Below, one piece after another: positions 26,183 to 52,427 of a stretch of 64,000 nucleotides of DNA. This stretch comes from Methylococcaceae bacterium TMED69. Its GTDB lineage: Bacteria > Pseudomonadota > Gammaproteobacteria > Ga0077536. Positions within the stretch are counted from its first letter, which is position 1. The number at the start of each line of letters is the position of its first letter. The stretch is from assembly GCA_002170535.1 (NCBI GenBank), contig NHDW01000001.1, forward strand, positions 59,899 to 123,898, given 5' to 3'. The position numbers were made by a program, and so were the translations under genes. The notes beneath the pieces were generated by a model, which was not told where the DNA came from, did not search any database, and saw nothing but the letters and a program-made list of their open reading frames with translations.

Positions 26183-26202
26183 ATAATTTCTCCCGGGTTA
26201 TT

Positions 26203-32902: not shown

Positions 32903-33364
32903 ATGCTTAAATTAGATAAGATAGATTACAACATATTGCGTATCATTCAAGCTGAAGGGCGAATATCAAATTTAAACCTCGCTGACAAAATTAGATTGTC
33001 ACCCTCTCCTTGCTTAAGGAGAGTTAAGGAACTTGAAAAAGAGGGCGTTATAAAAAAATACGTGGGACTGGTCGAGCCAAAAGCTGTGGGTTTCCTTATT
33101 AATGCTTTCGTCAATGTTTCTCTACAGAGCCAGAAAGAAAGATTTCTTAATATCTTTGAACAAAAGATTTCACTGTATGAAGAAGTAAGTGAATGCTATC
33201 TAATGACAGGCAGTTCAGATTATCTGTTGCGTGTTGTAACTCGAGACCTAGAAGAATACGAACGGTTTGTTATCGATAAGTTGACAAAAATTGAAGGAAT
33301 CGCGAACATTCAAACAAGTTTTGCCCTGAAGCCACTGGTTCAAAGGACAGAAATTCCTATTTGA
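32903..33364 (+). CDS. Lrp/AsnC-family transcriptional regulator
   Basis: 153 aa with an N-terminal HTH (LDKIDYNILRIIQAEGRISNLNLADKIRLSPSPCLRRVKELE) and a C-terminal RAM domain. Confidence 0.85.
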   Translation: MLKLDKIDYNILRIIQAEGRISNLNLADKIRLSPSPCLRRVKELEKEGVIKKYVGLVEPKAVGFLINAFVNVSLQSQKERFLNIFEQKISLYEEVSECYLMTGSSDYLLRVVTRDLEEYERFVIDKLTKIEGIANIQTSFALKPLVQRTEIPI

Positions 33365-34142: not shown

Positions 34143-35537
34143 TTAACGACCTTCTGTCAGGTAGTTAACGTCATGACTACGACGAACTTGCTTGATAGTT
34201 ACGTCTGGGTAACTATTTCCCCGACATGGTACTAATGTTCCTCTTCCGTTTTGCTTATCAACAACGTTGATGCTTTGGAAGTTTTGTACTCTAGTACCCA
34301 TAGGTGTTTCGTCCCCTTTGAATCCTTTACGATTGGCCTTATCCCTATACTGATCATCTTCTGTCCAGCTTTTTTGGATTTGCCATACTTTCCAAAGTTC
34401 ACCCGCTTGGTCAAAGGAGTTTGCATAATATGCTTCACCAGATTGACGGTCAGTATAGATGAATTTGTTGCTGTATGGATGGTTTCGACCAGTTCCGACT
34501 CCAGGATACATTTTAACCACGTCCATTAGTCTTAACGCATGGTCATCATATGGTGCCCAACCGTTAGGTCCGTAGTAAATGGTTTCTGGGTACCGAGATC
34601 TTGCTACAGCAAGAATCTTAGCTGTACCTCTATACTCCCACTTATGCTCTAATGGACGTCCATTGAAGCCGTAAAAATCTTCTAGAGTATGGTCAGTTCC
34701 GAGAAGAGAATCAGATTTTACTTCAACAGAAATACGTCTAACACGTCTAAGACTTGGTATATAAGCCCAAGAATCATCAGCTTTTCTTGCATCATCATAT
34801 CTTAAAATCAGGAAGGCTGTTCCTGCAATATCGAATGGTGATGTAAACCCAGTGTACTCTCTGAAGTGTGTGTTTTTCGCAAATCCTTGTCCGTTATTCA
34901 TCGCAAAACCTTCCGATTCAGGAATGTCTGCTCTGTGAGCCATTATGACCCTTTGATATGGTCCGGCAAGAACCCGTTCGAAAGTTCCTTGACCTCTATA
35001 GAAGTCAGCGTATTTACCGCCACCTTCAGACATAACAGCATGATCATCATGCGAACCGCCTTCTCTTACCCATACCCAATGTACCTCGGCTATTTTAAGG
35101 CCAGTATATTGCCATCTGTGGGTCCAATTCCAAACCCATTTCCAACCGTCTTCTTCACTGCCAATTTCAAATGTTTCTGGATCAAATGGCCTGCCGGTTG
35201 CATAGTTCATGAGTGCGCCATCAGCATCGATTGAAGCTGTACCAAGATATTTGGTTGTAGCTTCTTGATAAGATGGAGCTGGTGACATATCCCCTGCGTC
35301 TTTAATTACCATTTCCATGCCTTCGAACAGAACTTCATCTTGTTGTTCTGCAGGTATGAATGGTCTAACTAAATCTGCTTTGTCGAAGGTAATAACATCA
35401 CCATCAACGAATTGTGGTTGTGCGCCCTGGTTTGAATCAAGCCATGCTTGATGGTCGTCTGCGCTAAACGCAAAAGCGTTTAACGAGAAACAAGCCAAAG
35501 AAGCTACAAGCCACAAGTTGGTTAAAGATTTCTTCAT
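34143..35537 (-). CDS. secreted protein, DUF1329-like
   Basis: Signal peptide, 464 aa, rich in W/Y/G. Its overall pattern resembles DUF1329 periplasmic proteins, but this is a low-confidence family call. Confidence 0.4.
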   Translation of the reverse strand: MKKSLTNLWLVASLACFSLNAFAFSADDHQAWLDSNQGAQPQFVDGDVITFDKADLVRPFIPAEQQDEVLFEGMEMVIKDAGDMSPAPSYQEATTKYLGTASIDADGALMNYATGRPFDPETFEIGSEEDGWKWVWNWTHRWQYTGLKIAEVHWVWVREGGSHDDHAVMSEGGGKYADFYRGQGTFERVLAGPYQRVIMAHRADIPESEGFAMNNGQGFAKNTHFREYTGFTSPFDIAGTAFLILRYDDARKADDSWAYIPSLRRVRRISVEVKSDSLLGTDHTLEDFYGFNGRPLEHKWEYRGTAKILAVARSRYPETIYYGPNGWAPYDDHALRLMDVVKMYPGVGTGRNHPYSNKFIYTDRQSGEAYYANSFDQAGELWKVWQIQKSWTEDDQYRDKANRKGFKGDETPMGTRVQNFQSINVVDKQNGRGTLVPCRGNSYPDVTIKQVRRSHDVNYLTEGR

Positions 35538-35789
35538 TTAGATATCCCCTAGTTCCTACTTGTTACAATTAAATCAACCTTAAATAAAGGTTCATTCATG
35601 AATTCCAAATCATAAATTGACCGAGGTGAAATTTTTGTGAATGTGGTTTAAAAAATCATTCTATAAATGTAGTTTTAGATTTAGGGCTATAATTTAATTT
35701 AGTTCTAGTTAGGTAACCTATTGATAAGATGGCAGTTATTAAAATCTAGATCTCGTTAGCGGTTGCTGTCACTATGTCTTTAGAAATTT

Positions 35790-37010
35790 TTGGAGGGATT
35801 GCGAATGTCGTTTGAAGAGAAAGTTGTTCCCTTAGAGGGTATTACAATACTTGATATGAGCGCCGTATTATCGGGCCCTGCATCAACTATGCTGCTAGCG
35901 GACCAAGGAGCTCGCGTGATTAAGGTTGAGTCGCCTGAAGGTGATATTACTCGTAAAATGGGTGTTAGAAAAGGTAGCTTATCTACAGCGTTCATAAATA
36001 TAAACAGAGGAAAACAATCCTTATCAATTGATTTAAAAACTCTAGAAGGGCGTCAAATTATTGAAGGGTTGGTCGAAAATAGTGATGTTTTTGTACAGAA
36101 TTTCAGACCAGGAGTGATAGAACGTCTTGGTTTAGATGAAAAATCTATTCGTAAGCTAAATCACCAAGTCGTTTATGTATCGATTAGCGGTTTTGGTAAC
36201 ACTGGCCCGCTCATAAACAGCAGAGTATACGATCCCGTTATACAGGCGATTTCTGGGTTAGCCGACATTCAGGCTGGTGGTTCGTCGAGGCCGAAAATGG
36301 TCAGGACTGTTATTCCTGATAAAGTGACTGCTTTGAAAGCGGCTCAGGCTATTACCGCGGGCTTACTTTATCGTTCAAGAGTTACAAAAGGCTGTCATAT
36401 TAAATTGTCCATGCTTGATGCTATGGTTGCTTTTTTGTGGCCGGAGGGAATGATGAACTATACTTTAATAGAGGATAGAGCTTCTGGAAGTCCTGAAGGC
36501 CAAATCGCTCAAGATTTAGTGTTTAGAACATTAGATGGTTTTATTACAGTCGGCGCGATGTCAGATCAAGAATGGGCTAGTTTGTGCGAGGTTTTACAAA
36601 AACCTGAGTGGGTATCGGATAGGAGGTTTAAGACTACTGCAGCACGACTGAAAAACGCAAAAACCAGATTGCAGATGACGTCAGAAATTCTAAAAATGAA
36701 AGAGAGTTCTTATTGGATTTCTCGCTTCAGCGAGAAAGAAGTACCTTGTGCGCCAATTTTATCAAGACGTGAGATGTTAAACTATGAACAAGTTCTTCAA
36801 AGTAAAATTTACACGGAATTAGACCATCCTAATTTTGGGCGAATAAGACAGACGAGAGCCGCAGCCGTTTTTGATGACGGCTCACCAATGAGACAATGTT
36901 ACGCTCCGACGCTTGGCCAACATAATGAAAAAATAATTGAGGAACTTGGGTACGAAAAAAACTATATCGATAGTTTGTATGACAAAAATATTTTGTTTAG
37001 ATCGGTCTAA
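35790..37010 (+). CDS. family III CoA-transferase (CaiB/BaiF/Frc family)
   Basis: N-terminal LEGITILDMSAVLSGPASTMLLADQGARVIKVE with the catalytic Asp region, and a characteristic interlocked-dimer sequence pattern. The true start is probably the Met at 35805. Confidence 0.85.
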   Translation: MEGLRMSFEEKVVPLEGITILDMSAVLSGPASTMLLADQGARVIKVESPEGDITRKMGVRKGSLSTAFININRGKQSLSIDLKTLEGRQIIEGLVENSDVFVQNFRPGVIERLGLDEKSIRKLNHQVVYVSISGFGNTGPLINSRVYDPVIQAISGLADIQAGGSSRPKMVRTVIPDKVTALKAAQAITAGLLYRSRVTKGCHIKLSMLDAMVAFLWPEGMMNYTLIEDRASGSPEGQIAQDLVFRTLDGFITVGAMSDQEWASLCEVLQKPEWVSDRRFKTTAARLKNAKTRLQMTSEILKMKESSYWISRFSEKEVPCAPILSRREMLNYEQVLQSKIYTELDHPNFGRIRQTRAAAVFDDGSPMRQCYAPTLGQHNEKIIEELGYEKNYIDSLYDKNILFRSV

Positions 37011-37100
37011 TTCATTACACTTAAGCGACGTTTAAACTATTATTTAATTTTTAAATGGTAGTTTTTAGCTTTTAGGCCAATTAAAGGTAAAAGGAGAATT

Positions 37101-37529
37101 ATGACTAAAACCTTGAATGCGGAATGTTTTTGCGGCGAAGTAAGGTTGAAGATTAATGGGGTACCAGAAGCGATGGGATATTGTCATTGCGATTCTTGCA
37201 GACATTGGTCTGCGGGTCCTGTCAATGCTTTTAGCCTATGGGCACCAGCAAATATCGAAATTATACAAGGTCAACACAATCTACAAACTTACACTAAGAC
37301 TGAAAATAGCTTAAGAAAGTGGTGCGGTACATGCGGCGGACATGTTATGACAGAGCATCCAAAGATGAACTTAACCGACGTTTATTCGGCTGTTATCCAT
37401 CGATTAGAATTTAACCCTAGCGTCCATGTGTTTTATTCGGAAAAGCGAATTAGCATGCCTGATGGGCTTCCTAAGTTCAGTGATATGCCAAAAGAAATGG
37501 GTGGATCTGGTAAGCTTTTACCTGAATAG
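37101..37529 (+). CDS. GFA-family protein (glutathione-dependent formaldehyde-activating enzyme / CENP-V fold, Zn-binding)
   Basis: Cys pattern C-x-C...C-H-C-x2-C...C-x2-C (CFCGEV...GYCHCDSCRHWS...CGTCGGHV). Confidence 0.8.
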   Translation: MTKTLNAECFCGEVRLKINGVPEAMGYCHCDSCRHWSAGPVNAFSLWAPANIEIIQGQHNLQTYTKTENSLRKWCGTCGGHVMTEHPKMNLTDVYSAVIHRLEFNPSVHVFYSEKRISMPDGLPKFSDMPKEMGGSGKLLPE

Positions 37530-37581
37530 TAATGTTATTAAGATAATATCTTCCATATCAATTAACTGAGGAGATGTAGTT

Positions 37582-38655
37582 ATGGCAATCGGAATTTTAA
37601 AGGAAACTAAAGTCAAAGAATACCGTGTGGCTCTAGATGATTCTCAGGTAGCTCGATTAGTTTCTGCTGGTGTACAAGTGTTTGTAGAGAGTGATGCAGG
37701 TTTGGGTGTTGGAATTACCGATGACAATTATATTGACGCGGGTGCAACGGTAATCGGAGATCCTGAGGAACTTATCAGTGTCTCTAAGGTTGTCATTAAG
37801 GTAAAAGAACCGAATATAAAAGAATGTAAACTTTTACAACCCCACCAGATATTATTTTGTTATTTACATTTGGCGGCATTCCCGGAACAGACTCGCTTGC
37901 TTTGTGAATCCGGGGTTACTGCTGTTGGTTTTGAGACTGTGAGCACTTCTGATGGGCAGTTGCCACTCTTAAAGCCTATGAGTCAAATTGCGGGTAGGTT
38001 GGCTGTACAGAATGCAGTCCATTTTCTTCAAAAGCATGAAGGTGGAAGGGGTGTACTGATGTCTGGAGTTGGTGGAGTCGAGAGAGGAAGAATTTTAATC
38101 ATTGGTGGAGGGACAGCGGGAGAAAATGCCGCTTCTATCGGTGTGGGACTGGGAGCTGAAGTAACAATTTTTGATAGGTCGCTGGAAAGGTTAGATTATT
38201 TGGCTGATAAATTTGGTTCTAATTTAAATTATGTCTACCCCACAACTAAAGCCTATGATGAGCACCTTTCTAATGCTGACATAGTTATTGGCTCTGTGTT
38301 GATTCCAGGAGCAAGTGCCCCAAAATTAGTCTCAAGAAATATGGTAGGCAATATGAAAGTAGGCGCTGTTGTTGCGGATATCGCGATAGACCAGGGTGGT
38401 TGTATAGAAACTTCTCGACCTACTTCCCATGATGAACCGACCTATATTGTTGATAACGTAATCCACTATTGTGTGGCTAATATTCCTAGTGCGGTACCTC
38501 TTACCTCAACTAAAGCATTAAGTAACTCGATCTCACCTTACGTTCAGATTTTGGCTGAAATAGCTAACCCAATTGACTTAGTTACAAAAAACCATCCATT
38601 GAAAAGCGGTGTTAATATTTATAATGGTGAGGTCCGTCTAGATAATCTACAGTAA
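37582..38655 (+). CDS. ald: alanine dehydrogenase
   Basis: Near-colinear with Bacillus Ald. Matching segments: ILKE.K..E.RVAL, KVKEP, LFCYLHLAA, GVTA.GFETV, LPLL.PMS.IAGR, IIGGG..G.NAA..GVGLGA.VTI.D, VLIPGA.APKLV and IAIDQGG.IET.RPT.HDEPTY. Confidence 0.85.
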   Translation: MAIGILKETKVKEYRVALDDSQVARLVSAGVQVFVESDAGLGVGITDDNYIDAGATVIGDPEELISVSKVVIKVKEPNIKECKLLQPHQILFCYLHLAAFPEQTRLLCESGVTAVGFETVSTSDGQLPLLKPMSQIAGRLAVQNAVHFLQKHEGGRGVLMSGVGGVERGRILIIGGGTAGENAASIGVGLGAEVTIFDRSLERLDYLADKFGSNLNYVYPTTKAYDEHLSNADIVIGSVLIPGASAPKLVSRNMVGNMKVGAVVADIAIDQGGCIETSRPTSHDEPTYIVDNVIHYCVANIPSAVPLTSTKALSNSISPYVQILAEIANPIDLVTKNHPLKSGVNIYNGEVRLDNLQ

Positions 38656-38707
38656 GTTTGCTGTTACAGTTTATCAAAAACTTAGCAAAACTTGTTTTGG
38701 ACAATAT

Positions 38708-39946
38708 ATGAAAAAAAAAGAAGAAGAAATTTTAATAATTGGTGGTTCGATGGCTGGCTTATTAGCTGGGATGAGTCTGAAAAATAGAGGTTATGAGGTA
38801 AAAATTTTTGAGCGTAGCACATCTTCACTGGAAAATAGAGGCGCAGGAATAGCCACACATGACGAGCTTTACGAAGCTTTAGAGTTCGCAGGCTTGTCTT
38901 CAAAAGCGAGTATGGGAGTGGTTTCAGACGAAAGGTTGTTTTTCTCGAAGAATGGAGATGTGACCCACAGAGTGGCAATGCCTCAGACGATGACGTCGTG
39001 GGGTCTAATCTATCGGTTTTTAAAGTTAAAATTAAGTCCCGGAGAATATTATCCAGATCACTGTCTTAACAATATTTTATATTCTCCTGACGGTAAAATT
39101 ATTGCAAAATTTACCAATGGTAAAACTGTCCAAGGTGACTTCTTGGTAGGAGCTGATGGTAGTTTATCTAGGGTCAGGCAAATCCTGCTTCCACATATTA
39201 AACCAGAGCATTCAGGTTATATAGCATGGCGAGGTTTGGTAAACGAATCAGATATTCCGTCCTCTGCGCTTCATAAGTTGGCTAATAAGTTTAGTTTTGC
39301 TTTGACTGAGGGCGGGCATTGGCTGGGATATTTGGTTGCGGGTCCGAACGATGATTTAGCGGAAGGAAAAAGATGGTATAACTGGGTTTGGTACCAATGG
39401 GAGGACACTCATTCGTTAGAAAAGATTCTCACCGATAAATCAGGTAAATATTATCCTTCTGGAATACCTCCAAATTTAATAACCGAGAAAAGTAAAAATT
39501 ATATGCGAAAGAAAGCTGCTCAATTACCAAGTATTATTCGAGAGCTTGTTACAAAGACAAAAGTTCCTTTTTTACAGGGTATTCAAGACTTATGCGTGAA
39601 TAGATTGTCCTTTGACAAGGTCGTTTTGATAGGGGATGCCGCTTGTACTGCGAGGCCTCATGTTGGTCTAGGAGTCTCGAAGGCTGCTTCGGACGCCATG
39701 ACATTGACAAAAGCGTTGTTATCCCCTGACCGAGAAGAGGCTTTGGAGCGTTGGCAGCAATCTAGGTTGGAGTTCGCAAAAGCTGTATTTCAGTGGTCGC
39801 GAGATTTGGGAAGTTACATAGGAAGTCAGAAAAAAGATAAACCCACCGGTTTTAAAGCTGATTATTACGATGATCCGAATACACTCATAATTCAAAATGC
39901 CTCAAACCAGCCCAGTCATTATATTAAATACTATCTGGCACGATAA
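38708..39946 (+). CDS. FAD-dependent aromatic-ring-type monooxygenase (PHBH-fold flavoprotein hydroxylase)
   Basis: ILIIGGSMAGLLAG...EVKIFER dinucleotide motif, DFLVGADGSLSRVR (the GADG motif), and a C-terminal GDAA-like motif (IGDAACTARPHVG). Confidence 0.7.
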   Translation: MKKKEEEILIIGGSMAGLLAGMSLKNRGYEVKIFERSTSSLENRGAGIATHDELYEALEFAGLSSKASMGVVSDERLFFSKNGDVTHRVAMPQTMTSWGLIYRFLKLKLSPGEYYPDHCLNNILYSPDGKIIAKFTNGKTVQGDFLVGADGSLSRVRQILLPHIKPEHSGYIAWRGLVNESDIPSSALHKLANKFSFALTEGGHWLGYLVAGPNDDLAEGKRWYNWVWYQWEDTHSLEKILTDKSGKYYPSGIPPNLITEKSKNYMRKKAAQLPSIIRELVTKTKVPFLQGIQDLCVNRLSFDKVVLIGDAACTARPHVGLGVSKAASDAMTLTKALLSPDREEALERWQQSRLEFAKAVFQWSRDLGSYIGSQKKDKPTGFKADYYDDPNTLIIQNASNQPSHYIKYYLAR

Positions 39947-40020
39947 GGGGTTGGCTGAAGGGCAGCTTTGATTTAAGCTTAATGAAAATTAAAAAAATTA
40001 GGAATTAGGAAGGGAAAAAT

Positions 40021-41631
40021 ATGAAGGAAGAAGAATTGAAATTAGACGCTTTAGTTATTGGGGCTGGAGTAGCAGGTTTGTATCAATTATATCTATTAAG
40101 AAAACAAGGCTTGAACGTCAAAGTCATTGATGCGGGCTCAGGGGTAGGCGGCACTTGGTATTGGAATCGTTATCCTGGAGCAAGATTCGATTCTGCCTGT
40201 TACATTTATCAATATTTATTTGACGAAGAGTTGTATAAAGGTTGGAGTTGGTCTGAAAAATTTCCTGGACAACCAGAAATTGAGAGATGGATGAACTATG
40301 TTGCTGATAAATTAGAATTAAAAAAGGATATTCAATTTAGTACCGTTGTGAAATCAGCTACATGGGATCAACAGCGTTCGTCTTGGCAGGTATCAACGGA
40401 TTCTGGTCAAAAAATAGAATGTCAGTATCTCATTTCTTGCACTGGAATGTTATCGGCTCCGTTAGAGAATGTATTCCCCGGCCAGGATAAATTCGACGGA
40501 GATATTTTTCATACCGCACGTTGGCCAAAAGAATCAATTGATTTTTCTAATCGTAGGGTTGGTATAGTAGGGAATGGAGCTACGGGAATTCAGGTTATTC
40601 AAACAATTGCTCCTGACTGTAAAGAGTTGAAAGTTTTCGTTCGCACACCGCAGTACGTCAATGCAATGAATAATCCTAAATATTCAGACAAAGACGTTGA
40701 AGAATACAAAGATAAATTTCATTGGTTTCAAGAGAACTTACCAAAAACTTTTTCGGGATTCGAATTTGAATGGCAAGATGGCTCTTGGGCTGATAGCACA
40801 CCTGAAAAAAGAAGAGAGGTACTCGAAAGAATTTGGGAAAATGGTTCATTAGAACTATGGCTTTCCTCTTATAAAGAGATGTTTTTCGAGCAGGAAGTGA
40901 ATGATGAAATATCAAATTTCGTGCGAGAAAAGATGGAACAAAGACTCAAAGATCCACAACTATGTGAAATCCTTATTCCGAAAGATTACGGTTTCGGTAC
41001 CCATAGGGTTCCACTCGAGAATGGTTATCTGGAGAAGTTTCATCTCCCTCACGTAAACCTAATTAGTGTTAAAGATAATCCAATCGCAGAGATAACATCG
41101 AGCGGAATTCGCCTAAGTAATGGGCAATCTTTTGAACTCGACACAATTATACTAGCTACTGGTTTTGATGCTGGTTCTGGAGCGCTGACAAGGATTGATA
41201 TAAAAGGCAAGAGCGATCAGTTGCTTAAAGACGAGTGGAATCGGGAAATTAAAACAATGATGGGTCTTCAAATAAGCGGTTATCCAAACTTGTTCACAAC
41301 TGGTGCTCCGCTCGCGCCCTCGGCAGCGCTCTGTAATATGACGACTTGTTTACAACAACAAGCAGAATGGATAAGCGATTGCATAAGCTACGTTAATGGG
41401 CAGGGGAAAAAAGTTATTGAAGCCAGCGAGTCAGCTCAAGAGGCTTGGGTGTCCCATCATGACGAAGTCGCTGAACAGACACTGGTAACGAAAACAAGCT
41501 CTTGGTATATGGGTTCTAATGTAGACGGAAAACCGAGAAGGTTACTATCTTATATTGGCGGGGTGGGCAATTATCGAGAGAAATGTCTTGACGTTGCGAA
41601 AGCCGAATATACAGGTTTTAATATTACCTAA
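40021..41631 (+). CDS. type I Baeyer-Villiger monooxygenase (FAD/NADPH-dependent)
   Basis: Two Rossmann motifs (GAGVAGL and GNGATGIQ) plus the BVMO fingerprint F-x-G-x3-H-x3-W-P, here FDGDIFHTARWP. 536 aa. Confidence 0.85.
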   Translation: MKEEELKLDALVIGAGVAGLYQLYLLRKQGLNVKVIDAGSGVGGTWYWNRYPGARFDSACYIYQYLFDEELYKGWSWSEKFPGQPEIERWMNYVADKLELKKDIQFSTVVKSATWDQQRSSWQVSTDSGQKIECQYLISCTGMLSAPLENVFPGQDKFDGDIFHTARWPKESIDFSNRRVGIVGNGATGIQVIQTIAPDCKELKVFVRTPQYVNAMNNPKYSDKDVEEYKDKFHWFQENLPKTFSGFEFEWQDGSWADSTPEKRREVLERIWENGSLELWLSSYKEMFFEQEVNDEISNFVREKMEQRLKDPQLCEILIPKDYGFGTHRVPLENGYLEKFHLPHVNLISVKDNPIAEITSSGIRLSNGQSFELDTIILATGFDAGSGALTRIDIKGKSDQLLKDEWNREIKTMMGLQISGYPNLFTTGAPLAPSAALCNMTTCLQQQAEWISDCISYVNGQGKKVIEASESAQEAWVSHHDEVAEQTLVTKTSSWYMGSNVDGKPRRLLSYIGGVGNYREKCLDVAKAEYTGFNIT

Positions 41632-41688
41632 TCTGATTTAGTTGCGGTTTGATAGGATGTTAAACTTCATTGTTTTGGGGAGAATATA

Positions 41689-43737
41689 ATGACATGCATA
41701 TTAGGGATAGACGTTGGAGGTACATTTACCGACTTCGTCTATCATGATCCCTCTGAAGACAAGTTGATAGTTTGGAAAACCCTTTCAACACCATCAGATC
41801 CGGGAAAAGGAATTCTGGACGGCCTACAAAATCAACAGGTTGGCGGAGTAGATTACCTTCGTTTTGGAACAACTATTGCCACAAACGCGATACTTGAACG
41901 AAACGGTGCTACTGTGGCTTTTGTAACGACTTTGGGCTTTAAGGACGTTCCATTTATTCAAAGGGGAAAACGACAGAGTCATTACGATATAAATTGGATT
42001 AAGTCCAAGCCCTTAGTAAAAAGAAGACATTGTTTTGAAATCGACGAACGTATTACGCCTCGTGAAGGGGTCTACAAAGCGCTTGATGAAAATCAAGTCA
42101 GAAAAGTTGCTAGAGCGATAGGTAATGATCAAGAAATAGAAGCAATAGCAATTTGTTTACTTTGTTCTTATGTCATACCTGATCATGAGATTCGGGTAAA
42201 AGAAATTTTTAGAGAAGAAATTCCTGATAAGCCCATTTCTATATCTTATGACTTACTTCCGAAGTGGAAAGAACATGAACGATCTTCAACAACAATAGCT
42301 GATGCTTATTTGAAACCTCTGGTTTCAGAAAATTTGAAGAGGCTTGGTCACAAATTGTCCGAAGCAAAAGATATAAAAAGAGTGTCTGTAATTAAGTCAA
42401 ATGGAGGAGAGGTATCTCTAGAAGCAGCTAAAAATTGTCCAATTCATCTAAGTTTGTCTGGCCCTACCGGGGGAGTCATTGGTGCTCGACAACTTTCAAA
42501 CCTCATTAACATTGATCATATGGTTACGCTTGATATGGGCGGAACATCAACAGATGTTTCGACTGTAGTAGGCAGGACAGAAAGTTTTACAACGAGTTAT
42601 GAAATAGAGTTTGGCATACCAATTCAAATCCCAATGATTGATATAAGAACTATGGGTGCAGGTGGAGGCTCAATAGCGTGGATAGATAAGGGTGGAATGT
42701 TGCAAGTCGGTCCACAAAGTGCCGGCGCGGCTCCCGGCCCAGCCTGTTACGATAGAGGAGGAGAGTTGCCCACAGTGACAGATGCAAATGTGGTTTTAGG
42801 TAGAATTAACCCTCAATTCTTTTTGGGTGGAAATATGAAGTTAAGCGTGGAGAAAGCAAAGCAAGCAGTAAAATCAATAGCTGAACAGTTGGGAGAAACT
42901 TTAGAAAATACTGCGAATGGTATCGTGAAGATAGCTAATAATAATATGGTTGGTGCAACTCGGTTGGTATTGACTGAAAAAGGACTAGACCCAAGAGATT
43001 TTACTATGCTTGCATTTGGTGGAGCCGGCCCCGTGCATATTTCTGACTTGATGCAACTTGCAGGGACACCGAGTGGTATTGTGCCTAATCATCCCGGTCA
43101 ATTCTCCGCTTTTGGATTCACGATGACAGATGCAAGAGTTGATTTAGAACGGACTGCGCCAATGACGTCCAGGTTTTTTAATTTTGACTATGCTAATAGA
43201 GTCTTAAGTGATTTGGTCGCAGAATGCAGCGAGGCATTGGTAGAGCAGGGATACACAGAGAAGATAGAAGTATTGAAAACCCTAGAAATGCGTTATTTTG
43301 GTCAAAATCACGAATTAGAGATTTCATTCTACGATAATGAATTCTCAGAAAATGCAATATCTTCTGTTTGGGATTCTTTTCATGAAGCGCATAAGAAGCG
43401 TTATAATTTCGACATCCCTAACGAGACGATAGAACTAATAAGTATAAAAGTTACCGCTTTAGCTCTCACTCCAAAGCCCCAAATACCAATCATAGCGTAC
43501 TCTGATAAACTTCCATCTCCTTACGAAAAACGTCAAGTTTTTTTCGATAGTGGGATAGCAAGTGCCTCGGTTTACAGAAGAGAAGAGCTTCCAGTCGGTA
43601 AAATTTTTACAGGACCAGCGCTTATAGAAGAAGATGCATCTGTTACAGTTGTTAGTCCTGACATGCCAGTCCTTATTGACAAATACGGAAATATTGTCTT
43701 AGGTAAGTTAGCCGCGGAGTATAAAAACAAATTATGA
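41689..43737 (+). CDS. hyuA: hydantoinase/oxoprolinase family protein, A-type subunit (HyuA-like, ATP-binding)
   Basis: N-terminal GIDVGGTFTDFV, a central DMGGTSTD motif, and the family's ASKHA-fold pattern. 682 aa. Confidence 0.85.
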   Translation: MTCILGIDVGGTFTDFVYHDPSEDKLIVWKTLSTPSDPGKGILDGLQNQQVGGVDYLRFGTTIATNAILERNGATVAFVTTLGFKDVPFIQRGKRQSHYDINWIKSKPLVKRRHCFEIDERITPREGVYKALDENQVRKVARAIGNDQEIEAIAICLLCSYVIPDHEIRVKEIFREEIPDKPISISYDLLPKWKEHERSSTTIADAYLKPLVSENLKRLGHKLSEAKDIKRVSVIKSNGGEVSLEAAKNCPIHLSLSGPTGGVIGARQLSNLINIDHMVTLDMGGTSTDVSTVVGRTESFTTSYEIEFGIPIQIPMIDIRTMGAGGGSIAWIDKGGMLQVGPQSAGAAPGPACYDRGGELPTVTDANVVLGRINPQFFLGGNMKLSVEKAKQAVKSIAEQLGETLENTANGIVKIANNNMVGATRLVLTEKGLDPRDFTMLAFGGAGPVHISDLMQLAGTPSGIVPNHPGQFSAFGFTMTDARVDLERTAPMTSRFFNFDYANRVLSDLVAECSEALVEQGYTEKIEVLKTLEMRYFGQNHELEISFYDNEFSENAISSVWDSFHEAHKKRYNFDIPNETIELISIKVTALALTPKPQIPIIAYSDKLPSPYEKRQVFFDSGIASASVYRREELPVGKIFTGPALIEEDASVTVVSPDMPVLIDKYGNIVLGKLAAEYKNKL

Positions 43738-43946
43738 GATTTTCAGAAAACAAATATTACATAGAGAAATATATAAAATGCGATAACTGTGGAATGCTTA
43801 TCTATGGCGATGGTCTGAAATCTAAAGAATTTTCTAAATTGTTGTTTTGTAGCGATTGGTGTATAGATTGGTATAAATCTAAGTCAAAAGGTAATGAAGA
43901 TCCGCGTATACCGTTGCCTAAAAGTGGAATTCACGAAATCAACTAG
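43734..43946 (+). CDS. 70-aa zinc-ribbon protein, translationally coupled between hyuA and hyuB. Possible small third subunit.
   Basis: Its start ATG overlaps the hyuA stop (ATGA). It has C-x2-C ... C-x3-C (CDNCG ... CSDWC). The hyuB ribosome-binding site AGGAGG follows 8 nt after its stop. Confidence 0.5.
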   Translation: MRFSENKYYIEKYIKCDNCGMLIYGDGLKSKEFSKLLFCSDWCIDWYKSKSKGNEDPRIPLPKSGIHEIN

Positions 43947-43957
43947 GAGGCTAGCAA

Positions 43958-45655
43958 ATGGACATGATAAATATGAATATTATCGAGTCAGCTATGATAG
44001 CGATCGCTAAAGAAATGGGAATTAATGTACAAAAAACAGCGTACTCCACAATCTTTAGTGAAGCTGAAGATTTCACATGCGCATTGGCAAATCGTGCGGG
44101 TGAATTAATTGCCGTGGCCGACTTTTGTCCCTCTCAAATTGGAGGCGTTCCGCTGTTGGTTCGATCCATGTTGAAGGAAATTCCCCTCTCAGAAATTGAT
44201 GAAGGCGATGTGATTGTGCACAATGATCCATACAGAGGTGGGTTGCACACACCAGAACATACAGTATTCAAACCGATCTTTATCGACGGTGAAATCGCGG
44301 CATTTTCTGTATGTGTTGGTCACTTTGTAGAGGTTGGGGGGATGGCTCCAGGGGGGTTTCCGGGTGAAGCCACTGAAATTTTTCATGAAGGTTTGAGGGT
44401 CCCACCTGTGAAAATTATAAAAAAAGGAGTAGATGTTCCAGAGGTCTGGAAAATGATGTTGGCTAATGTTAGAACCCCTAGAGGAAACTATGGTGATATG
44501 AGGGCTCTGATTAGCGGAGTGGATCTAGGGGAAAAAAGACTTCAAGAATTAGTTAAAAAATACGGTAAAGATAAATTTAATACAATAGTTAAAGATCTTC
44601 TAGATTATTCTGAAAGGCGGATGAGAGCGGAAATCTCAGAATTTCCCGACGGTGTTTATCGATTTATTGATAGAGTCGAAGACGACGGTATAGAAGACAA
44701 AGAATATGAAGTGCACGTTGCCGTGCATGTCCAAGGAGATGAGGTGGTTATCGATTACACTGGCTCGTCAAGACAGGCAAAGGGTCCAATTAATGCCACT
44801 TTAGGAGTTGCTTGGTCAGCTGCGTTTAATGCCATGTTACATTTAACAGATCAAAGCATCCCAAAAAATTCTGGTTGTTTCAGACCAATTAGAGTGATCG
44901 CACCAGCTGGAACCGTAATGAATGTTAATTATCCGGGTTCTGAGGTTGGAGGAAACACAGAAACTCATCCTTTGATAGTAGCGGCTATATTTGGCGCGAT
45001 GGTGGAGTGCGTGCCCGATAGGGTTATGGCTTCTGAAGGAACCACTCATGGATGTTTTGTTTTCGGTGGTCATGATGACTACACTGATGAGCCTTTTGGG
45101 GGATTTGATTTCAGCTATGTAGGTTATGGAGGCCGTGCATTTGCTGACGGCAATGATGCAACAGATTCGATTAATGGAAACTGCGCAAACACTCCAATGG
45201 AAGTATTTGAAACAAGGTTTCCTTGGATAGTCGAGGAATATGCGCTAAGGCCAAACTCAGGAGGGGCTGGAAAATTTAGAGGTGGTTTAAGCAATGTGAA
45301 ACAAATGTTATGTACAGGAGGGATGTTAGTCAGCCAGATGACCAATAAGCATAAATTAGGCGCATGGGGCCTAGTTGGCGGAGAGGAAGGTAAAACCGGC
45401 GCAACGTTATTTAAAAAATCAGGTAGCGATAGCTGGGAGACGGCGGTAGAGGCTTATGGTAAAGTCAGCCCAAGTAAGTATTCGAATATTCCAATGCAAC
45501 CAGGAGACCGAGTTCGAGTTTCAGCACCTGGTGGAGGCGGATACGGTCAAGCGTCTGAAAGAGAAAAAAGTGATGTTCTTATGGACGTAAAGGAAGGTTA
45601 TATAAGTAAAGCTGATGCAATAAAATCATACCCAGTCAACGGCAGTGATTTGTAG
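43958..45655 (+). CDS. hyuB: hydantoinase B/oxoprolinase family protein (HyuB-like catalytic subunit)
   Basis: 565 aa with the characteristic HyuB N-terminal region (IAKEMGINVQKTAYSTIFSEAEDF). AGGAGG ribosome-binding site. Confidence 0.85.
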   Translation: MDMINMNIIESAMIAIAKEMGINVQKTAYSTIFSEAEDFTCALANRAGELIAVADFCPSQIGGVPLLVRSMLKEIPLSEIDEGDVIVHNDPYRGGLHTPEHTVFKPIFIDGEIAAFSVCVGHFVEVGGMAPGGFPGEATEIFHEGLRVPPVKIIKKGVDVPEVWKMMLANVRTPRGNYGDMRALISGVDLGEKRLQELVKKYGKDKFNTIVKDLLDYSERRMRAEISEFPDGVYRFIDRVEDDGIEDKEYEVHVAVHVQGDEVVIDYTGSSRQAKGPINATLGVAWSAAFNAMLHLTDQSIPKNSGCFRPIRVIAPAGTVMNVNYPGSEVGGNTETHPLIVAAIFGAMVECVPDRVMASEGTTHGCFVFGGHDDYTDEPFGGFDFSYVGYGGRAFADGNDATDSINGNCANTPMEVFETRFPWIVEEYALRPNSGGAGKFRGGLSNVKQMLCTGGMLVSQMTNKHKLGAWGLVGGEEGKTGATLFKKSGSDSWETAVEAYGKVSPSKYSNIPMQPGDRVRVSAPGGGGYGQASEREKSDVLMDVKEGYISKADAIKSYPVNGSDL

Positions 45656-45664
45656 GTAAAACTT

Positions 45665-46078
45665 ATGAGCAAGCTAACGAAAAGTCTTCATTGGTCAACT
45701 GTGATAGGTGAGAAAATATTGCTCGCTATTATAGGTTTCTTAACTATAGTTGCAGCTGGTCTTGATATTCTCGAAATGTACGACGCTAGAAAAATAGAAC
45801 TGGCCGACCTATTTTTATTATTCATTTATGCCGAAATAATAGGGATGGTTGGTGCATTCTATGCCAGTAGTCGTATTCCAGTTACATTACCAATAATAAT
45901 TGCCATGACCGCGTTATGTAGATTAATTGTGCTCCATAGTAAAGAAATGGACCCGATGATGTTGTTTGCTGAAGCAGGTGCAATTGCTATACTGGCCGCC
46001 GCCGCTTATGTGATGAGCCTTAAAGATAAAATTAGTTTAGAGAAAAGTGAACTAAGAGAACGGGTTTCGAAACAATAA
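45665..46078 (+). CDS. PsiE-like small inner-membrane protein (phosphate-starvation-inducible protein E family)
   Basis: 137 aa with 4 TM helices. Its spacing and residues resemble E. coli PsiE (YAEIIGMV compared with YFEFIALIV, and TALCRLIVLHSK compared with TAIVRLIIVDHK). Confidence 0.5.
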   Translation: MSKLTKSLHWSTVIGEKILLAIIGFLTIVAAGLDILEMYDARKIELADLFLLFIYAEIIGMVGAFYASSRIPVTLPIIIAMTALCRLIVLHSKEMDPMMLFAEAGAIAILAAAAYVMSLKDKISLEKSELRERVSKQ

Positions 46079-46159
46079 GACCGTTAAAATTTTGCCACGA
46101 TTCTGGAAAAGTTTCGCCGAGGAAGACCAGAAAATGTTGAGGAAATAATAGAACCTGCC

Positions 46160-49100
46160 GTGATTACTAAAAAATCCTCAAATAATAAATGGCAATTTTG
46201 GATTGATAGGGGAGGTACATTCACAGACGTTATAGGCGTTTCCCCCGATGACGTTATCCACGTAAAAAAAATCCTCACTGCTCATAAAAATGAATCCTTC
46301 AAGATAATCCTTGAGCATATTTATTCAATTATCCGGTCGACTGATGCTGATGGGCATGTTGATGAAAGTATAGGTGAGATTAAACTTGGTACAACCCTGG
46401 GAACTAATGCTTTATTAGAAAAAAAAGGCGCTAAAACTGTTTTGGTGGTCACAAAAGGTTATAAAGATCTGCTGTCGATAGGACATCAGAACAGAGAATT
46501 GCTGTTCTCATTTAACATAAGGAAAGAAAGTACGTTTTGGGAAAGTGCCGTAGAGGTTGGAGGTAGGATAAGTGCTAGTGGCAAAATTCTTGATAGACTA
46601 GATGAAAATGATGTAGTAAACGTGCTTAAGACCCGCAAAATAAATTCTTTCGACGCTGTCGCGGTCGCTTTGATTAATAGCCATATAAATCCAGCGCATG
46701 AAAATCTTGTTGCTAAGAAATTACAAGATTTGGGTATAGATAATCTCGCTATCTCACATCAAAGCAGCTCAATGTTAGGGTATGTTGATCGTGCAAACAC
46801 CGCTGTCGTTGACGCTTATTTAAAACCACTACTAGAAAAATATGTAGCGGGCATAAAAAAAGAGATAGGTAAAGTAAATTTTCTAATCATGCAATCTCAT
46901 GGTGGACTGGCCGAAGCGGAGAATTTTCAGGGCAGGAATTCCATTTTATCAGGACCTGCCGGCGGAGTGATAGGAGCAGTTAAAACCGCAAGAAATAGAG
47001 GTTTTGATAAAATTATCTGTTTTGATATGGGGGGCACCTCGACCGATGTGGCTCATTATCATGATAACTACGAGTACAGAAGTCAAAGTAAAATTGAAAG
47101 CATCACAATTAACAGTAATTCAATGGACATCCATACGGTGGCCGCAGGAGGAGGTTCTATCGTTGATTTTGACGGCATTAGGTACAAAGTGGGCCCGGAA
47201 TCAGGGGGCTCATATCCTGGTCCTGCCTGTTACGGGAATGGCGGCCCGGTTACAGTCACAGACTGTAACGTTCTGATTGGTATAATCAGACCAGAATATT
47301 TTCCAACTCTGTTCGGTAAAAATAAAAATTCGCCCATAGACAGAGATTTAGTTGTTTCAATATTTGAAAAAATAAAGGATGATTCAAAAAATAAGCTAAA
47401 GGAAGATATGACTATTTACCAAATCGCAGAGGGTTTTTTAGAATTAGCTGTAAAAAAAATGGCCAATGCAATAAAAAAAATATCAATTGATAAAGGTCAT
47501 GATATAAAAAACTATGTTTTAAATTGCTATGGAGGTGCAGCTGCGCAACACTGCTGTGCAGTTGCAGATTCTCTAAGCATTAAAGAAATTTTCATTTCAA
47601 ATAATGCCAGCGTCTTATCTGCTCTTGGGATCGGTCTCTCAGATAGACAAATAATTATTGAAAAATCAATAAACAAAATTCTTTGCGACTCAATTGTTAA
47701 AGAATTGCCAATTTTTGCTGAACGAATAATTAAAGATTCGAAATTAAATTTTAAAAGACAAGAATTAGTAACAAGTGAAATTTTTCTTAAATTAAAGTTT
47801 GAGGACACCTCGGATACTTTTTTAATTCCTTTGAGCGATAGTAACAGTATGAGAGATCAATTTATGCAGTCTTTTAAAAAAAGCTATGGTTTTCTAGAGC
47901 AAAATAAAAACCTTTTTGTTGAGTCAATTTTGGTTAAGACAATAGAAGCATCAAAAATTAATCTTAATGCCTTAAGTTCCAATTCTTCAGAACATGTAAA
48001 TACAAATAAAACTGCACTAGAAAAAAAGGTTTTTGAGGATGGTCAATGGAAAGATATACCTTTCTATCAGCTCGAGGAGCTCTCAAGCCAAAAATCAATA
48101 ATTGGTCCCGCAGTCATAATATCACCAAACAATACGGTATTAATAAAGACAGGTTGGACGTGTGATTGCTACGATAATCATGATTTATTATTGAGAAAAT
48201 TAAATCCTTCAGAGAAAAACAATCTTTTAATTAAATCACAGAATACAAAAATTGCCATGGAGGTAGCAATCTTTGGAAATCAAATAGTCTCTGTTGCGGA
48301 ACAGATGGGAAGTGCTCTTAAAAAGACTGCTACTTCTATCAACATAAAAGAGCGTTTGGACTATTCTTGTGCGATCTTCGATAGTGAAGGGTCATTATTG
48401 GCAAGTGCGCCACATATTCCTGTACATCTGGGCTCTATGAGCGATTGCGTAAAAACGTTAATTGAGAAGATGTCGGGCTCTTTAAAATCAGGTCAAACAT
48501 ATGTTACAAATGATCCGTTTAGAGGGGGAACACACTTACCAGATATTACATGTATTAGTCCAGTTTTTGCTTCTGAAAACCATAGAGCCCCCGTTTTTTT
48601 TGTGGCTTCTCGTGGTCATCACGCTGATATTGGAGGGATAACTCCAGGCTCTATGCCAGCTGAAAGCTTAAATATTCAACAAGAGGGAATACTCTTTAAG
48701 CTGATGATGGCAGTAAAAGATAATGTTTTTAGAGAAAAAGAAATTACCCGTATTCTTTTAGATAGTAATTATCCGGCTAGGAATATTGCCCATAATATTG
48801 CTGACCTAAAGGCGCAAATTGCGGCAAACCAGACAGGGATAAATGAGCTTCAAACTAAATTAATCGAGTTTGGTGAGGCTTCAGTTACTGACCTGTCGAA
48901 ACGTCTTTTAAATCAAGGCGAGCAGTTTGTGAGAAAGATTATACCTGACTTAAATTCAGGTACCTTTGAAGCTTGCCTTGATGAGGGGCAGAAGATTTCT
49001 GTCGATGTGCGCGTGAATAAAAATCAAAAAGAAATAACATTTGATTTCGAAAATACAAATGGGCAGCTTAAAACTAATTTTAACGCGCCTAAATCGATTA

Positions 49101-49792
49101 CTAAGGCGTGTATTATTTACGTTTTACGTTCGCTTATTTGTGATAAAGAAATACCATTAAATGATGGGTGTTTGATTCCAGTCAAATTAAAGATACCTAA
49201 AAAAAGTCTATTAGATCCAAGCTATCCCGCTGCAGTTGTCGCTGGTAATGTTGAAATTAGCCAAAAAATTGTCGATGTTATTTTAGCCGCTCTTGGAATC
49301 CAAGCATTTTCCCAGGGAACGATGAATAATTTATCTTTTGGAAACTCCCGTTTTCAATATTACGAAACAATTTCCGGCGGTTCGGGAGCGGGAAAAAATT
49401 ACGATGGCTCTAGCGCAAGACAAACACATATGACTAATTCACGAATTACAGATCCTGAGGTGATGGAACATCATTTCCCCGTTTTACTGGAGGAATTTTC
49501 AATAAGACAAAATAGCGGAGGAAAAGGTCAATATAATGGAGGAGACGGGGTGTGTAGAAAAATTAAATTTTTTGAGTCAGTTTCTTTATCGATATTATCG
49601 AGTAGTAGGGTATTTCGACCTACCGGATTAGATGGCGGATTGCAAGGATTAGCGGGTAGGAACTTTCATATTGATGAGGCTGGGTGTCATCATGAGTTGC
49701 CAGGATGTGCTCAAATAGAAATTAAGCCCGGTGAATCTATTTTAATTCACACGCCAGGTGGTGGAGGTTTTGGTGAGCCGTCTTTTGATTGA
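46160..49792 (+). CDS. fused hydantoinase/oxoprolinase A+B protein (5-oxoprolinase (ATP-hydrolysing)-like, eukaryote-type single-chain architecture)
   Basis: 1210 aa. The N-terminus (WQFWIDRGGTFTDV) parallels animal OPLAH (FHFAIDRGGTFTDV). It has the DMGGTSTDV motif, and its C-terminal half is HyuB-like. GTG start. Confidence 0.8.
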   Translation: MITKKSSNNKWQFWIDRGGTFTDVIGVSPDDVIHVKKILTAHKNESFKIILEHIYSIIRSTDADGHVDESIGEIKLGTTLGTNALLEKKGAKTVLVVTKGYKDLLSIGHQNRELLFSFNIRKESTFWESAVEVGGRISASGKILDRLDENDVVNVLKTRKINSFDAVAVALINSHINPAHENLVAKKLQDLGIDNLAISHQSSSMLGYVDRANTAVVDAYLKPLLEKYVAGIKKEIGKVNFLIMQSHGGLAEAENFQGRNSILSGPAGGVIGAVKTARNRGFDKIICFDMGGTSTDVAHYHDNYEYRSQSKIESITINSNSMDIHTVAAGGGSIVDFDGIRYKVGPESGGSYPGPACYGNGGPVTVTDCNVLIGIIRPEYFPTLFGKNKNSPIDRDLVVSIFEKIKDDSKNKLKEDMTIYQIAEGFLELAVKKMANAIKKISIDKGHDIKNYVLNCYGGAAAQHCCAVADSLSIKEIFISNNASVLSALGIGLSDRQIIIEKSINKILCDSIVKELPIFAERIIKDSKLNFKRQELVTSEIFLKLKFEDTSDTFLIPLSDSNSMRDQFMQSFKKSYGFLEQNKNLFVESILVKTIEASKINLNALSSNSSEHVNTNKTALEKKVFEDGQWKDIPFYQLEELSSQKSIIGPAVIISPNNTVLIKTGWTCDCYDNHDLLLRKLNPSEKNNLLIKSQNTKIAMEVAIFGNQIVSVAEQMGSALKKTATSINIKERLDYSCAIFDSEGSLLASAPHIPVHLGSMSDCVKTLIEKMSGSLKSGQTYVTNDPFRGGTHLPDITCISPVFASENHRAPVFFVASRGHHADIGGITPGSMPAESLNIQQEGILFKLMMAVKDNVFREKEITRILLDSNYPARNIAHNIADLKAQIAANQTGINELQTKLIEFGEASVTDLSKRLLNQGEQFVRKIIPDLNSGTFEACLDEGQKISVDVRVNKNQKEITFDFENTNGQLKTNFNAPKSITKACIIYVLRSLICDKEIPLNDGCLIPVKLKIPKKSLLDPSYPAAVVAGNVEISQKIVDVILAALGIQAFSQGTMNNLSFGNSRFQYYETISGGSGAGKNYDGSSARQTHMTNSRITDPEVMEHHFPVLLEEFSIRQNSGGKGQYNGGDGVCRKIKFFESVSLSILSSSRVFRPTGLDGGLQGLAGRNFHIDEAGCHHELPGCAQIEIKPGESILIHTPGGGGFGEPSFD

Positions 49793-50220
49793 GCTAATAT
49801 CATCTCCTCGAAATGTTGCATAGTTAAAGTATCAAGCACATTAGAGTGCTCATCAAGAAATTCAACAAACCGATCATTTTTAGACTTATAGTTTACGTAA
49901 ATCAAACTATTTTTTGTGAACTCTTCGTCGTGAGTATCATTGCTAGCTTGAAAGCAATAATCTCCTTGTTCAAAAGTCTCTTTTATGCTGTGGTTGATTA
50001 TTTTTCCTGAGATAACATAAATTCTTGTCTCACAAGTGTGACGATGGGGGCCTGATCTATAACCTGCTTTTATTTTAAAAAGTAATTCCACAGTTTTGTC
50101 GGACCGGTTCAGTGATAAGACTTTTGCCTTGATTTTTTCTTCGCTGTCTATAGCTAACCAGGGAATCTGGCTCGTTTTCCTGTTATTAAATTGTGTATTC
50201 ATATAGCGTTTAACTAACAA
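49747..50220 (-). CDS. cupin-domain protein
   Basis: G-x5-H-x-H cupin motif 1 (GPHRHTCETRIYVISG). 157 aa. Its 3' end overlaps the convergent oxoprolinase gene by 45 nt. Confidence 0.5.
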   Translation of the reverse strand: MLVKRYMNTQFNNRKTSQIPWLAIDSEEKIKAKVLSLNRSDKTVELLFKIKAGYRSGPHRHTCETRIYVISGKIINHSIKETFEQGDYCFQASNDTHDEEFTKNSLIYVNYKSKNDRFVEFLDEHSNVLDTLTMQHFEEMILAQSKDGSPKPPPPGV

Positions 50221-51897: not shown

Positions 51898-52010
51898 ATG
51901 AGTTGACACAATTTGACGAAAAACTGATAATTAACTGTTTATAATACTTTAATTAATTTCACTCGTATTACATGTAAATTAATTTAATCATATACATCAG
52001 GAGCAAAAAG

Positions 52011-52427
52011 ATGTCATTAAAAGGGAGCAAAACAGAGGAAAACCTCAAAGCCGCATTTGCGGGTGAGTCGCAAGCAAATAGACGTTATCTCTACTTCGCA
52101 CAAAAGGCAGATGTAGAGGGATACAATGATGTTTCGACTGTATTTAGGTCAACAGCGGAAGGCGAGACCGGTCATGCCCACGGCCACCTAGAATATTTAG
52201 AAGCAGTTGGAGATCCTGCTACAGGAGAACCAATAGGTACTACGGAGCAGAACTTAAAAGCTGCAATAGCCGGTGAAACCCACGAATATACCGATATGTA
52301 TCCTGGTATGGCGAAGGCTGCTAAAGAAGAAGGTTTTGACGAAATCGCTGATTGGTTCGAGACTCTCGCAAAAGCTGAGCGTTCTCACGCCAACAGATTC
52401 CAAAAAGCCTTAGATTCTATATCTTAA
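52011..52427 (+). CDS. rubrerythrin-family diiron protein without a rubredoxin domain (erythrin-like)
   Basis: Two E-x2-H diiron motifs ([10 protein letters not shown] and ERSHANRF) plus conserved Glu residues ([11 protein letters not shown] and ETHEYTDMY). 138 aa. Confidence 0.8.

Follow-up and report, generated by a model that had tools for sequence, protein, structure and literature searches.

The best-described relatives of the enzymes considered here fall into two groups. One is represented by the acetone monooxygenase (ACMO) of Gordonia sp. TY-5, a Baeyer–Villiger monooxygenase (BVMO) that favors butanone and cyclobutanone and acts on acetone too; residues H325 and A433 have been singled out as features of this enzyme, and its gene, acmA, is bicistronic with the ester hydrolase gene acmB (PMC6215540). 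The other includes caprolactamase of Pseudomonas jessenii (CapAB, PDB 6yra) and N-methylhydantoinase (PDB 7hk5), both built from an ATP-binding A component and a metal-binding B component, and, in the same superfamily, the ATP-using acetone and acetophenone carboxylases (AcxABC and Apc), which carry extra small subunits beside two large ones. Genes of both groups meet in a ten-gene block of 14 kb from Methylococcaceae bacterium TMED69. The block spans positions 35790–49792 of the stretch of DNA analyzed, 64,000 nucleotides of contig NHDW01000001.1 (forward strand, 59,899–123,898), hereafter called the window. With moderate confidence, we read it as a genus-level, lineage-specific mosaic catabolic island of an uncultured marine pseudomonadote, in which modules evolve and travel separately, rather than as one conserved pathway.

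The ten genes, all on the plus strand, encode, in order, a family III CoA-transferase, a GFA protein, alanine dehydrogenase, a FAD hydroxylase, a BVMO, HyuA, a 70-aa Zn-ribbon protein, HyuB, a PsiE-family membrane protein and a fused HyuA-HyuB protein. A first-pass annotation, made from the letters of the window, had described the same ten open reading frames (ORFs) with short gaps between them; all were recovered at the same coordinates in the ORF list, and matches to Pfam and NCBIfam profiles bear out their enzyme families. The same annotation had proposed that the two enzyme classes, BVMO and Hyu, serve a single degradative route. This proposal finds no support in the comparison with other genomes (loci designated by L numbers), where the homologs of the BVMO, the hydroxylase and HyuA occur in unrelated contexts outside the clade of close relatives. 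The whole gene order is kept in those close relatives alone, at ~80–84% DNA identity (L010, L013 and L093–L097), among which L013, a metagenome-assembled genome labeled ‘Pseudomonadota bacterium DS_MAG30’, is the closest genome record. An identical BVMO protein is encoded on contigs from TARA Oceans and other marine metagenomes, and the gene order of the window recurs on one of these, the public contig L001 (38 kb). The composition of the island is new and confined to one genus. No paper on a cluster of BVMO and hydantoinase genes was found, in line with the earlier remark that no characterized pathway of this composition was known to its author.

Outside the clade, the three genes used as anchors change partners. 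Twelve loci with a BVMO at 48–65% identity (L014–L025), whose hosts include Bradyrhizobium, Granulosicoccus, Gordonia, Aquabacterium, Pseudomonas paraveronii, Haematobacter and Bordetella, hold no other island gene within the stretches of up to 10 kb inspected on each side. In half of them (L015–L019 and L023), an esterase of the beta-lactamase fold or an alpha/beta hydrolase is encoded directly downstream of the BVMO, which is the acmA–acmB pattern of Gordonia (PMC6215540), and two have an AraC regulator upstream; the pairing with an esterase is that of the BVMO homologs at 60–65% identity. BVMO homologs at 70–73% identity lie either beside a second BVMO, an aldehyde dehydrogenase and a glyoxalase or beside a short-chain dehydrogenase, again without island genes. 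The FAD hydroxylase is 85–93% identical within the clade and at most 50% beyond it; its homologs at 47–50% lack the island genes, and those inspected (47–49%) have as neighbors alcohol dehydrogenases, esterases, an amidase or a gene like that of hydroquinone dioxygenase; a metagenome scan with the hydroxylase returned the close relatives (including L095) and one 38% fragment, with no distant synteny. HyuA homologs at 58–69% identity keep, of the whole island, the HyuA/small protein/HyuB unit alone; those outside the clade, where named, are mostly alphaproteobacterial.

The clade itself is not uniform. In L095, whose BVMO is 94% identical, the order runs CoA-transferase, GFA, alanine dehydrogenase, hydroxylase, BVMO, PsiE and fused Hyu, and HyuA, the ribbon protein and HyuB are precisely absent. 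A clean indel junction (L095:6171–6247) between the BVMO stop and the PsiE start corresponds to a 4-kb segment of the window, 41651–45645 (blastn breakpoints 41650 and 45646), that is present or absent among relatives. No direct or inverted repeats were found flanking this indel, so that it bears no sign of a transposon. The least similar BVMO of the clade, that of L013 (92%), is still followed by HyuA, and loss in the L095 lineage would therefore be the simpler history. The GC content of the split Hyu unit, overall and at third codon positions, is the same as that of its neighbors, which gives no compositional sign of a recent transfer. Broken synteny among relatives, which the first-pass annotation had named as a mark of independent operons brought together by chance, is thus observed outside the close clade and, for the Hyu unit, in L095.

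Decay and uneven divergence add to this picture. The GFA gene (37101–37529; PF04828, 2.2e-19), encoding a Zn protein of the GFA/CENP-V family, is intact in the window and in L095–L097, carries the same frameshift in L010 (5399–5820) and L093 (1888–2309), and has lost residues 39–74 to an internal deletion in L013 (7205–7511); it appears dispensable. Protein identity to L010 is 96% for the BVMO, 93% for HyuB, 88% for alanine dehydrogenase, 69% for the fused Hyu protein and 67% for the CoA-transferase. It is because the anchor genes change partners outside the clade, L095 lacks the Hyu unit, the GFA gene decays and divergence is uneven that we favor a mosaic of separately moving modules.

The layout of the block in the window bears on two alternatives. 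The block lies between a 268-bp intergenic region (35538–35804), its largest gap and likely the promoter region of the plus-strand run, and a convergent ChrR-like cupin gene on the minus strand (49747–50220; Pfam match), which overlaps the 3′ end of the fused Hyu gene. On the far side of the intergenic region, the divergent minus-strand gene of a DUF1329/LolA-like lipoprotein (34143–35537; Pfam match) forms the left boundary. Inside the block, neighboring genes are separated by −4 to 90 bp; 17 terminator-like sites were counted where shuffled sequence would give 15.9, and a search for a strong plus-strand terminator found none. Strong internal terminators, the other mark of independent operons that had been put forward, are therefore lacking, and since the gaps are short and terminators absent, the genes may be co-transcribed in this lineage. 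Co-orientation alone, on the other hand, is weak evidence: at the strand-switch rate of the window (0.33), a run of at least ten genes arises in ~40% of simulated windows. Another co-oriented run, of eight functionally unrelated genes, lies at 19617–27803. The G+C content of the window is ~38%.

A purely fortuitous juxtaposition in a compact genome, with no regulation or function common to the modules, would fit the high gene density, the long co-oriented runs that are common in the window, the partners that differ everywhere else, the uneven rates of divergence and the gene decay. It is nonetheless a rather unlikely account, since a divergent promoter region and a convergent gene delimit the block, which is free of internal terminators, all of its members are catabolic enzymes, and the order persists across species at ~80% DNA identity. 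The opposite extreme, close to what the first-pass annotation had in mind, is a single dedicated, lineage-specific pathway for a ketone or an N-heterocyclic substrate. The two flavoenzymes would hydroxylate and oxygenate the substrate, the Hyu enzymes would take the place of the esterase in opening an ester, lactone, lactam or imide, and the product would be deaminated with the help of alanine dehydrogenase and activated by the CoA-transferase. The ten tightly spaced, co-oriented genes with no strong terminator, the order conserved in several related species, the presence of a Hyu gene always after the BVMO, where homologs elsewhere carry an esterase, and the failure to find an esterase in the annotated parts of the window all speak for such a route. 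We consider it unlikely all the same: the anchor genes keep no island partner outside the clade (HyuA keeps the Hyu unit alone), the split Hyu unit is dispensable in L095, the GFA gene decays, a co-oriented run this long is not statistically unusual, and the annotated parts of the window yielded no pyruvate-dependent omega-aminotransferase, aldehyde dehydrogenase or dedicated transporter that would complete such a route.

In the favored mosaic, the FAD hydroxylase and the BVMO would make up a first module. The BVMO gene (40021–41631) encodes a type I enzyme in which the signature noted earlier is complete: both fingerprints, FxGxxxHxxxW[P/D] (FDGDIFHTARWP, residues 158–169) and [A/G]GxWxxxx[F/Y]P[G/M]xxxD (GGTWYWNRYPGARFD, residues 43–57), are intact, as are the two Rossmann motifs GxGxx[G/A] (GAGVAG at 14 and GNGATG at 184). 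Its nearest solved relative is phenylacetone monooxygenase (PAMO, PDB 1w4x; 1.3e-139), with the catalytic Arg330 aligning with PAMO Arg337. In the same alignment, His329 takes the position of PAMO Lys336 (GTHRVPL versus GTKRLIL), and the active-site bulge has a one-Ala insertion (PSAALCNM versus PS-ALSNM). Many BVMO homologs at 66–70% identity are named ‘acetone monooxygenase (methyl acetate-forming)’ by JGI, names that are assigned automatically. Since His329 and the extra Ala match H325 and A433 of the Gordonia enzyme, and in view of the JGI names, the protein is best described as an ACMO-like, acetone/small-ketone type monooxygenase, an activity predicted from its residues and homologs; the link to small ketones made at first pass is strengthened accordingly by these observations. 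The likeness to AcmA/AcmB of Gordonia sp. TY-5 (EC 1.14.13.226) thus covers the type I architecture, the fingerprints, the His before the catalytic Arg and the extra Ala. It does not extend to the gene neighborhood: the gene directly after the BVMO is HyuA instead of an acmB-type esterase, the flanking genes are those of the FAD hydroxylase and the Hyu proteins, and neither an esterase nor an AraC regulator was found next to the BVMO. A BVMO of Gordonia jinhuaensis, 62% identical, is followed by an esterase gene. The mekA/mekB/mekR genes of Pseudomonas veronii, for a ketone BVMO, an esterase and an AraC regulator, would be a further candidate parallel.

With NADPH and O2, the BVMO would insert oxygen beside the carbonyl of a small ketone of the acetone, butanone and cyclobutanone class to give an ester; because its usual esterase partner is missing here, the ester would be cleaved by an enzyme encoded elsewhere. 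A bolder proposal is that, in this marine lineage, the ATP-dependent Hyu enzymes, among them a three-subunit HyuA/Zn-ribbon/HyuB form not described before, have functionally replaced the ester hydrolase of the ACMO-type BVMO, creating a new ring- or ester-opening route for an abundant small marine ketone or a cyclic N-compound that feeds alanine dehydrogenase and the CoA-transferase; we judge this distinctly improbable.

The hydroxylase gene (38708–39946) encodes a group-A FAD monooxygenase of the PRK07236 subfamily (NF005566, 408.9 bits against a cut-off of 333) with GADGSLS and GDAA motifs. Its nearest solved relative, 2,6-dihydroxypyridine 3-hydroxylase of the nicotine pathway (PDB 2vou; 4.7e-47), belongs to the same subfamily but is distant (164 bits), and the island has no other genes of an N-heterocycle pathway. 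Side by side with this, a DUF1330 gene and an Abhydrolase_3 esterase gene were observed to precede the 47–48% hydroxylase homologs in two loci (L101:7069–9209 and L102:6722–9212). The DUF1330 gene directly adjoins the homolog in L102 and lies ~650 bp upstream in L101, and genes for a PnpD-like hydroquinone dioxygenase subunit and an aldehyde dehydrogenase are close by in L102. These neighbors hint that the hydroxylase homologs may act on phenolic products of ester cleavage.

The second module would comprise HyuA, the Zn-ribbon protein and HyuB. HyuA (41689–43737) is an ATP-binding subunit with three Hydantoinase_A Pfam domains (298, 170 and 57 bits), and HyuB (43958–45655, 565 aa) belongs to the metal-dependent subunits (PF02538, 556 bits) that hold the ring-opening site in the hydrolases. 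The ASKHA ATP motifs DxGGTxxD, DxGGT and GxxPGP, as defined for CapA, appear in HyuA as DVGGTFTD at 8, DMGGT at 282 and GAAPGP at 346. Against the CapB metal tetrad D41/H99/D102/H124, HyuB aligns D38/H97/E100/H122, so that three of the four ligands are identical and the third in order is Glu for Asp. Among solved structures, HyuA scores 418 bits against N-methylhydantoinase, 356 against caprolactamase, 273 against acetophenone carboxylase and 215 against acetone carboxylase, and HyuB 304 bits against N-methylhydantoinase, 240 against CapB, 113 against ApcD and 54 against AcxA, the acetone carboxylase alpha subunit. CapAB and N-methylhydantoinase are therefore the best-scoring solved relatives of both subunits. 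The caprolactamase equivalogs NF050156 and NF050157 are matched at 502 and 315 bits, far under their cut-off of 1000, and HyuB has the length of CapB, compared with 684–776 aa for the carboxylase subunits. Because PDB and NCBIfam scores rank hydrolases above carboxylases, the sequences place the split enzyme, like the fused one described below, on the hydrolase side of the superfamily, with neither orthologous to a characterized member. A role as N-methylhydantoinase in creatinine breakdown was considered for the pair and rejected: this enzyme is the best PDB match but a distant one (418 and 304 bits), and there are no pathway neighbors, as no creatinine, sarcosine or caprolactam pathway genes were found in the annotated parts of the window.

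The neighbors of related Hyu units offer a further clue. An omega-aminotransferase gene lies directly upstream of the unit in L105, and a FAD amine oxidoreductase (TIGR03329-like, under the cut-off) and an ABC importer are encoded near those of L012 and L106. By analogy, these neighbors point to an amine as product of the Hyu enzyme, which would fit a caprolactamase-like reaction that uses ATP to convert a cyclic amide into an amino acid. The module is best read as a three-part, ATP-dependent hydrolase of caprolactamase/hydantoinase type. In it, HyuA would phosphorylate the substrate, by analogy with CapAB, and HyuB would open the ring of the cyclic amide to yield the amino acid, using a putative Asp/His/Glu/His metal site and carrying the Zn-ribbon protein at its N-terminus.

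The middle gene of this module (43734–43946), whose start overlaps the HyuA stop by 4 nt, encodes a 70-aa protein with the motif C16xxC19-x19-C39xxxC43. We take the TRASH-type zinc ribbon motif to be CX2C-X19-22-CX3C, which its CX2C-X19-CX3C spacing fits. The four-Cys motif and its conservation across lineages uphold the earlier call of a small Zn-ribbon ORF. No significant Pfam or NCBIfam match was found for the protein (best Pfam E-values, 0.27 and 0.99); its homolog in L012 has a weak precomputed PF24273 match and no other. A single-sequence AlphaFold model was unusable, with a predicted local distance difference test (pLDDT) score of 51 and a predicted template modeling (pTM) score of 0.36. 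Homologs in distant lineages are nevertheless 60% identical, and an N-terminal MRFSxNxYYIE, the four Cys (6 homologs) and a tail PRIPLPKxGxH are invariant among the homologs compared. The family is small, with 70 cluster representatives among 1.84 billion proteins. In L011 and L106, the gene separates HyuA from HyuB as it does here, and in L012 it immediately precedes HyuA. The HyuB of L105 (10045–11988) is 647 aa long, and its first 60-odd residues correspond to the 70-aa sequence; an equivalent fusion is seen in the library proteins P0386, P0426 and P0381. By the Rosetta-stone argument, these fusions are good evidence that the protein is a physical partner of HyuB, and it is probably a third subunit bound to that protein. 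A term search of the caprolactamase paper showed no such partner for CapAB, unlike the island unit, and a search for literature on the HyuA/Zn-ribbon/HyuB unit found none. This three-part subfamily, for which there is no curated family, is the modestly new and generalizable element of the locus.

A carboxylase was weighed as well. In an acetone/butanone island with two modes of attack, the BVMO would act when O2 is available and the Hyu unit would serve as an ATP-dependent, HyuAB-type carboxylase with a small Zn subunit. The ACMO hallmarks of the BVMO agree with this scheme; a small Cys4 protein as third part is reminiscent of the alpha–beta–gamma composition of acetone carboxylase (PMC8453981), and ATP and metal motifs are common to hydrolases and carboxylases. 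We nevertheless consider it very improbable. HyuB stands at 54 bits from the acetone carboxylase alpha subunit, as opposed to 304 and 240 bits from the hydrolases, and HyuA ranks them alike; HyuB is also distant from Apc and shorter than the carboxylase subunits. The 70-aa protein, matching no Pfam family, matches no acetone-carboxylase gamma family and has no detectable homology to a described family, and related Hyu units adjoin amine-processing enzymes. The identification as acetone carboxylase, one of the options floated at first pass, is accordingly rejected on the ranking of scores and on subunit size (565 aa versus a Mn-binding alpha subunit of ~776 aa).

Under the preferred mosaic reading, PsiE and the fused Hyu protein would form the third module. 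The PsiE-family membrane protein (45665–46078; PF06146, 2.9e-19) is encoded directly upstream of the fused Hyu protein in every clade member that spans this part (L010 and L095). The latter (46160–49792, 1210 aa) is, by its Pfam domains, a fused HyuA-HyuB and a divergent paralog of the split pair, to which it is 27–29% identical. It retains the ATP motifs DRGGTFTD at 16, DMGGT at 289 and GSYPGP at 350, and its best PDB match is the fused N-methylhydantoinase 7hk5 (374 bits, full length). Among close relatives, it is just 69–70% identical. Together with the CoA-transferase (58–68%), it diverges far faster than the surrounding genes (85–96%), which could reflect a loosening of constraint or recombinational replacement.

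Upstream of these modules lie three further genes, those of the CoA-transferase, the decaying GFA protein and alanine dehydrogenase. For the family III CoA-transferase (35805–37010, 401 aa from ATG; PF02515, CoA_transf_3, 2.6e-100), the family assigned at first pass stands and the start does not: ATG 35805, as called on the identical contig L001, is most likely the start codon, instead of TTG 35790. The Pfam match is full-length (positions 1–366 of 366), all NCBIfam equivalog scores fall far under their cut-offs, and the best PDB match is SUGCT (9br6, 1e-66); judged by these similarities, the protein is akin to the SUGCT/YfdE-type transferases that act on dicarboxylates. No other gene of the block diverges as fast: it is 58–68% identical in relatives whose BVMO is 92–96% identical. 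A tRNA-Asn called by ARAGORN within this ORF (36271–36351) is probably a false positive, as Rfam shows no tRNA there at E ≤ 1; at the same threshold, the Rfam scan of 32–56 kb gave just a sub-threshold sRNA match outside the block and no riboswitch or leader RNA. L-alanine dehydrogenase (37582–38655; TIGR00518, 422.5 bits against a cut-off of 391.85) is 88–91% identical among clade members. Speculatively, it might regenerate the pyruvate needed by an omega-aminotransferase that processes the opened lactam.

Several points weigh against the mosaic reading. Gene order is stable within the clade across several species-level variants, and the short gaps with no terminator between modules may reflect shared regulation and recruitment into a new lineage-specific pathway. 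Every clade member has a Hyu-family gene behind the BVMO (after PsiE in L095), at the position where the homologs have an esterase, and this placement could be functional and not accidental. The contexts sampled per anchor gene are few (3–12 loci). The functions of the island enzymes are predicted from sequence, and the ACMO label is built on two residues, automatic names and homolog neighborhoods.

Acetone-type volatile ketones are significant in the exchange of carbon between sea and air, and BVMO homologs are widely expressed in the surface ocean (PMC9300024). The locus presents an ACMO-like BVMO without its usual esterase, and its host is an uncultured marine bacterium found repeatedly in assemblies from TARA Oceans. 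The HyuA/Zn-ribbon/HyuB unit, a conserved three-part and sometimes fused form of the ATP-dependent hydantoinase/lactamase family, could help direct biochemical studies of the turnover of lactams and cyclic amides and of the role of small Zn subunits in the superfamily. A more general lesson is that tidy co-oriented blocks in compact marine genomes need comparative support before they are read as pathways.

Some observations concern the surroundings of the block. An AsnC/Lrp-family regulator gene (32903–33364, plus strand; Pfam match), 2.4 kb upstream, is the sole regulator near the block and keeps its position in L010 and L013; any link to the block is speculative. The DUF1329/LolA-like lipoprotein at the left boundary is 96% identical in L010, L013 and L097, and thus 96% identical between species that differ by ~20% in DNA; LolA-like and DUF1302 genes also occur within 10 kb of a 70% BVMO homolog in L104 (1751–4826). 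Farther upstream, a 785-aa ORF on the minus strand (22087–24444) combines a C-terminal domain like the N,N-dimethylformamidase beta subunit (4.9e-94) with a laminin-G-like domain, and the eight-gene minus-strand run to which it belongs also holds a class IV aminotransferase, a GST and a short-chain dehydrogenase. Downstream of the block, a conserved four-gene set on the plus strand (50464–54410) encodes an FrhB-like Fe-S protein, a rubrerythrin, a CCG-domain protein and a DUF3501 protein; in relatives, the rubrerythrin is 98–100% identical and the CCG protein just 76–77%.

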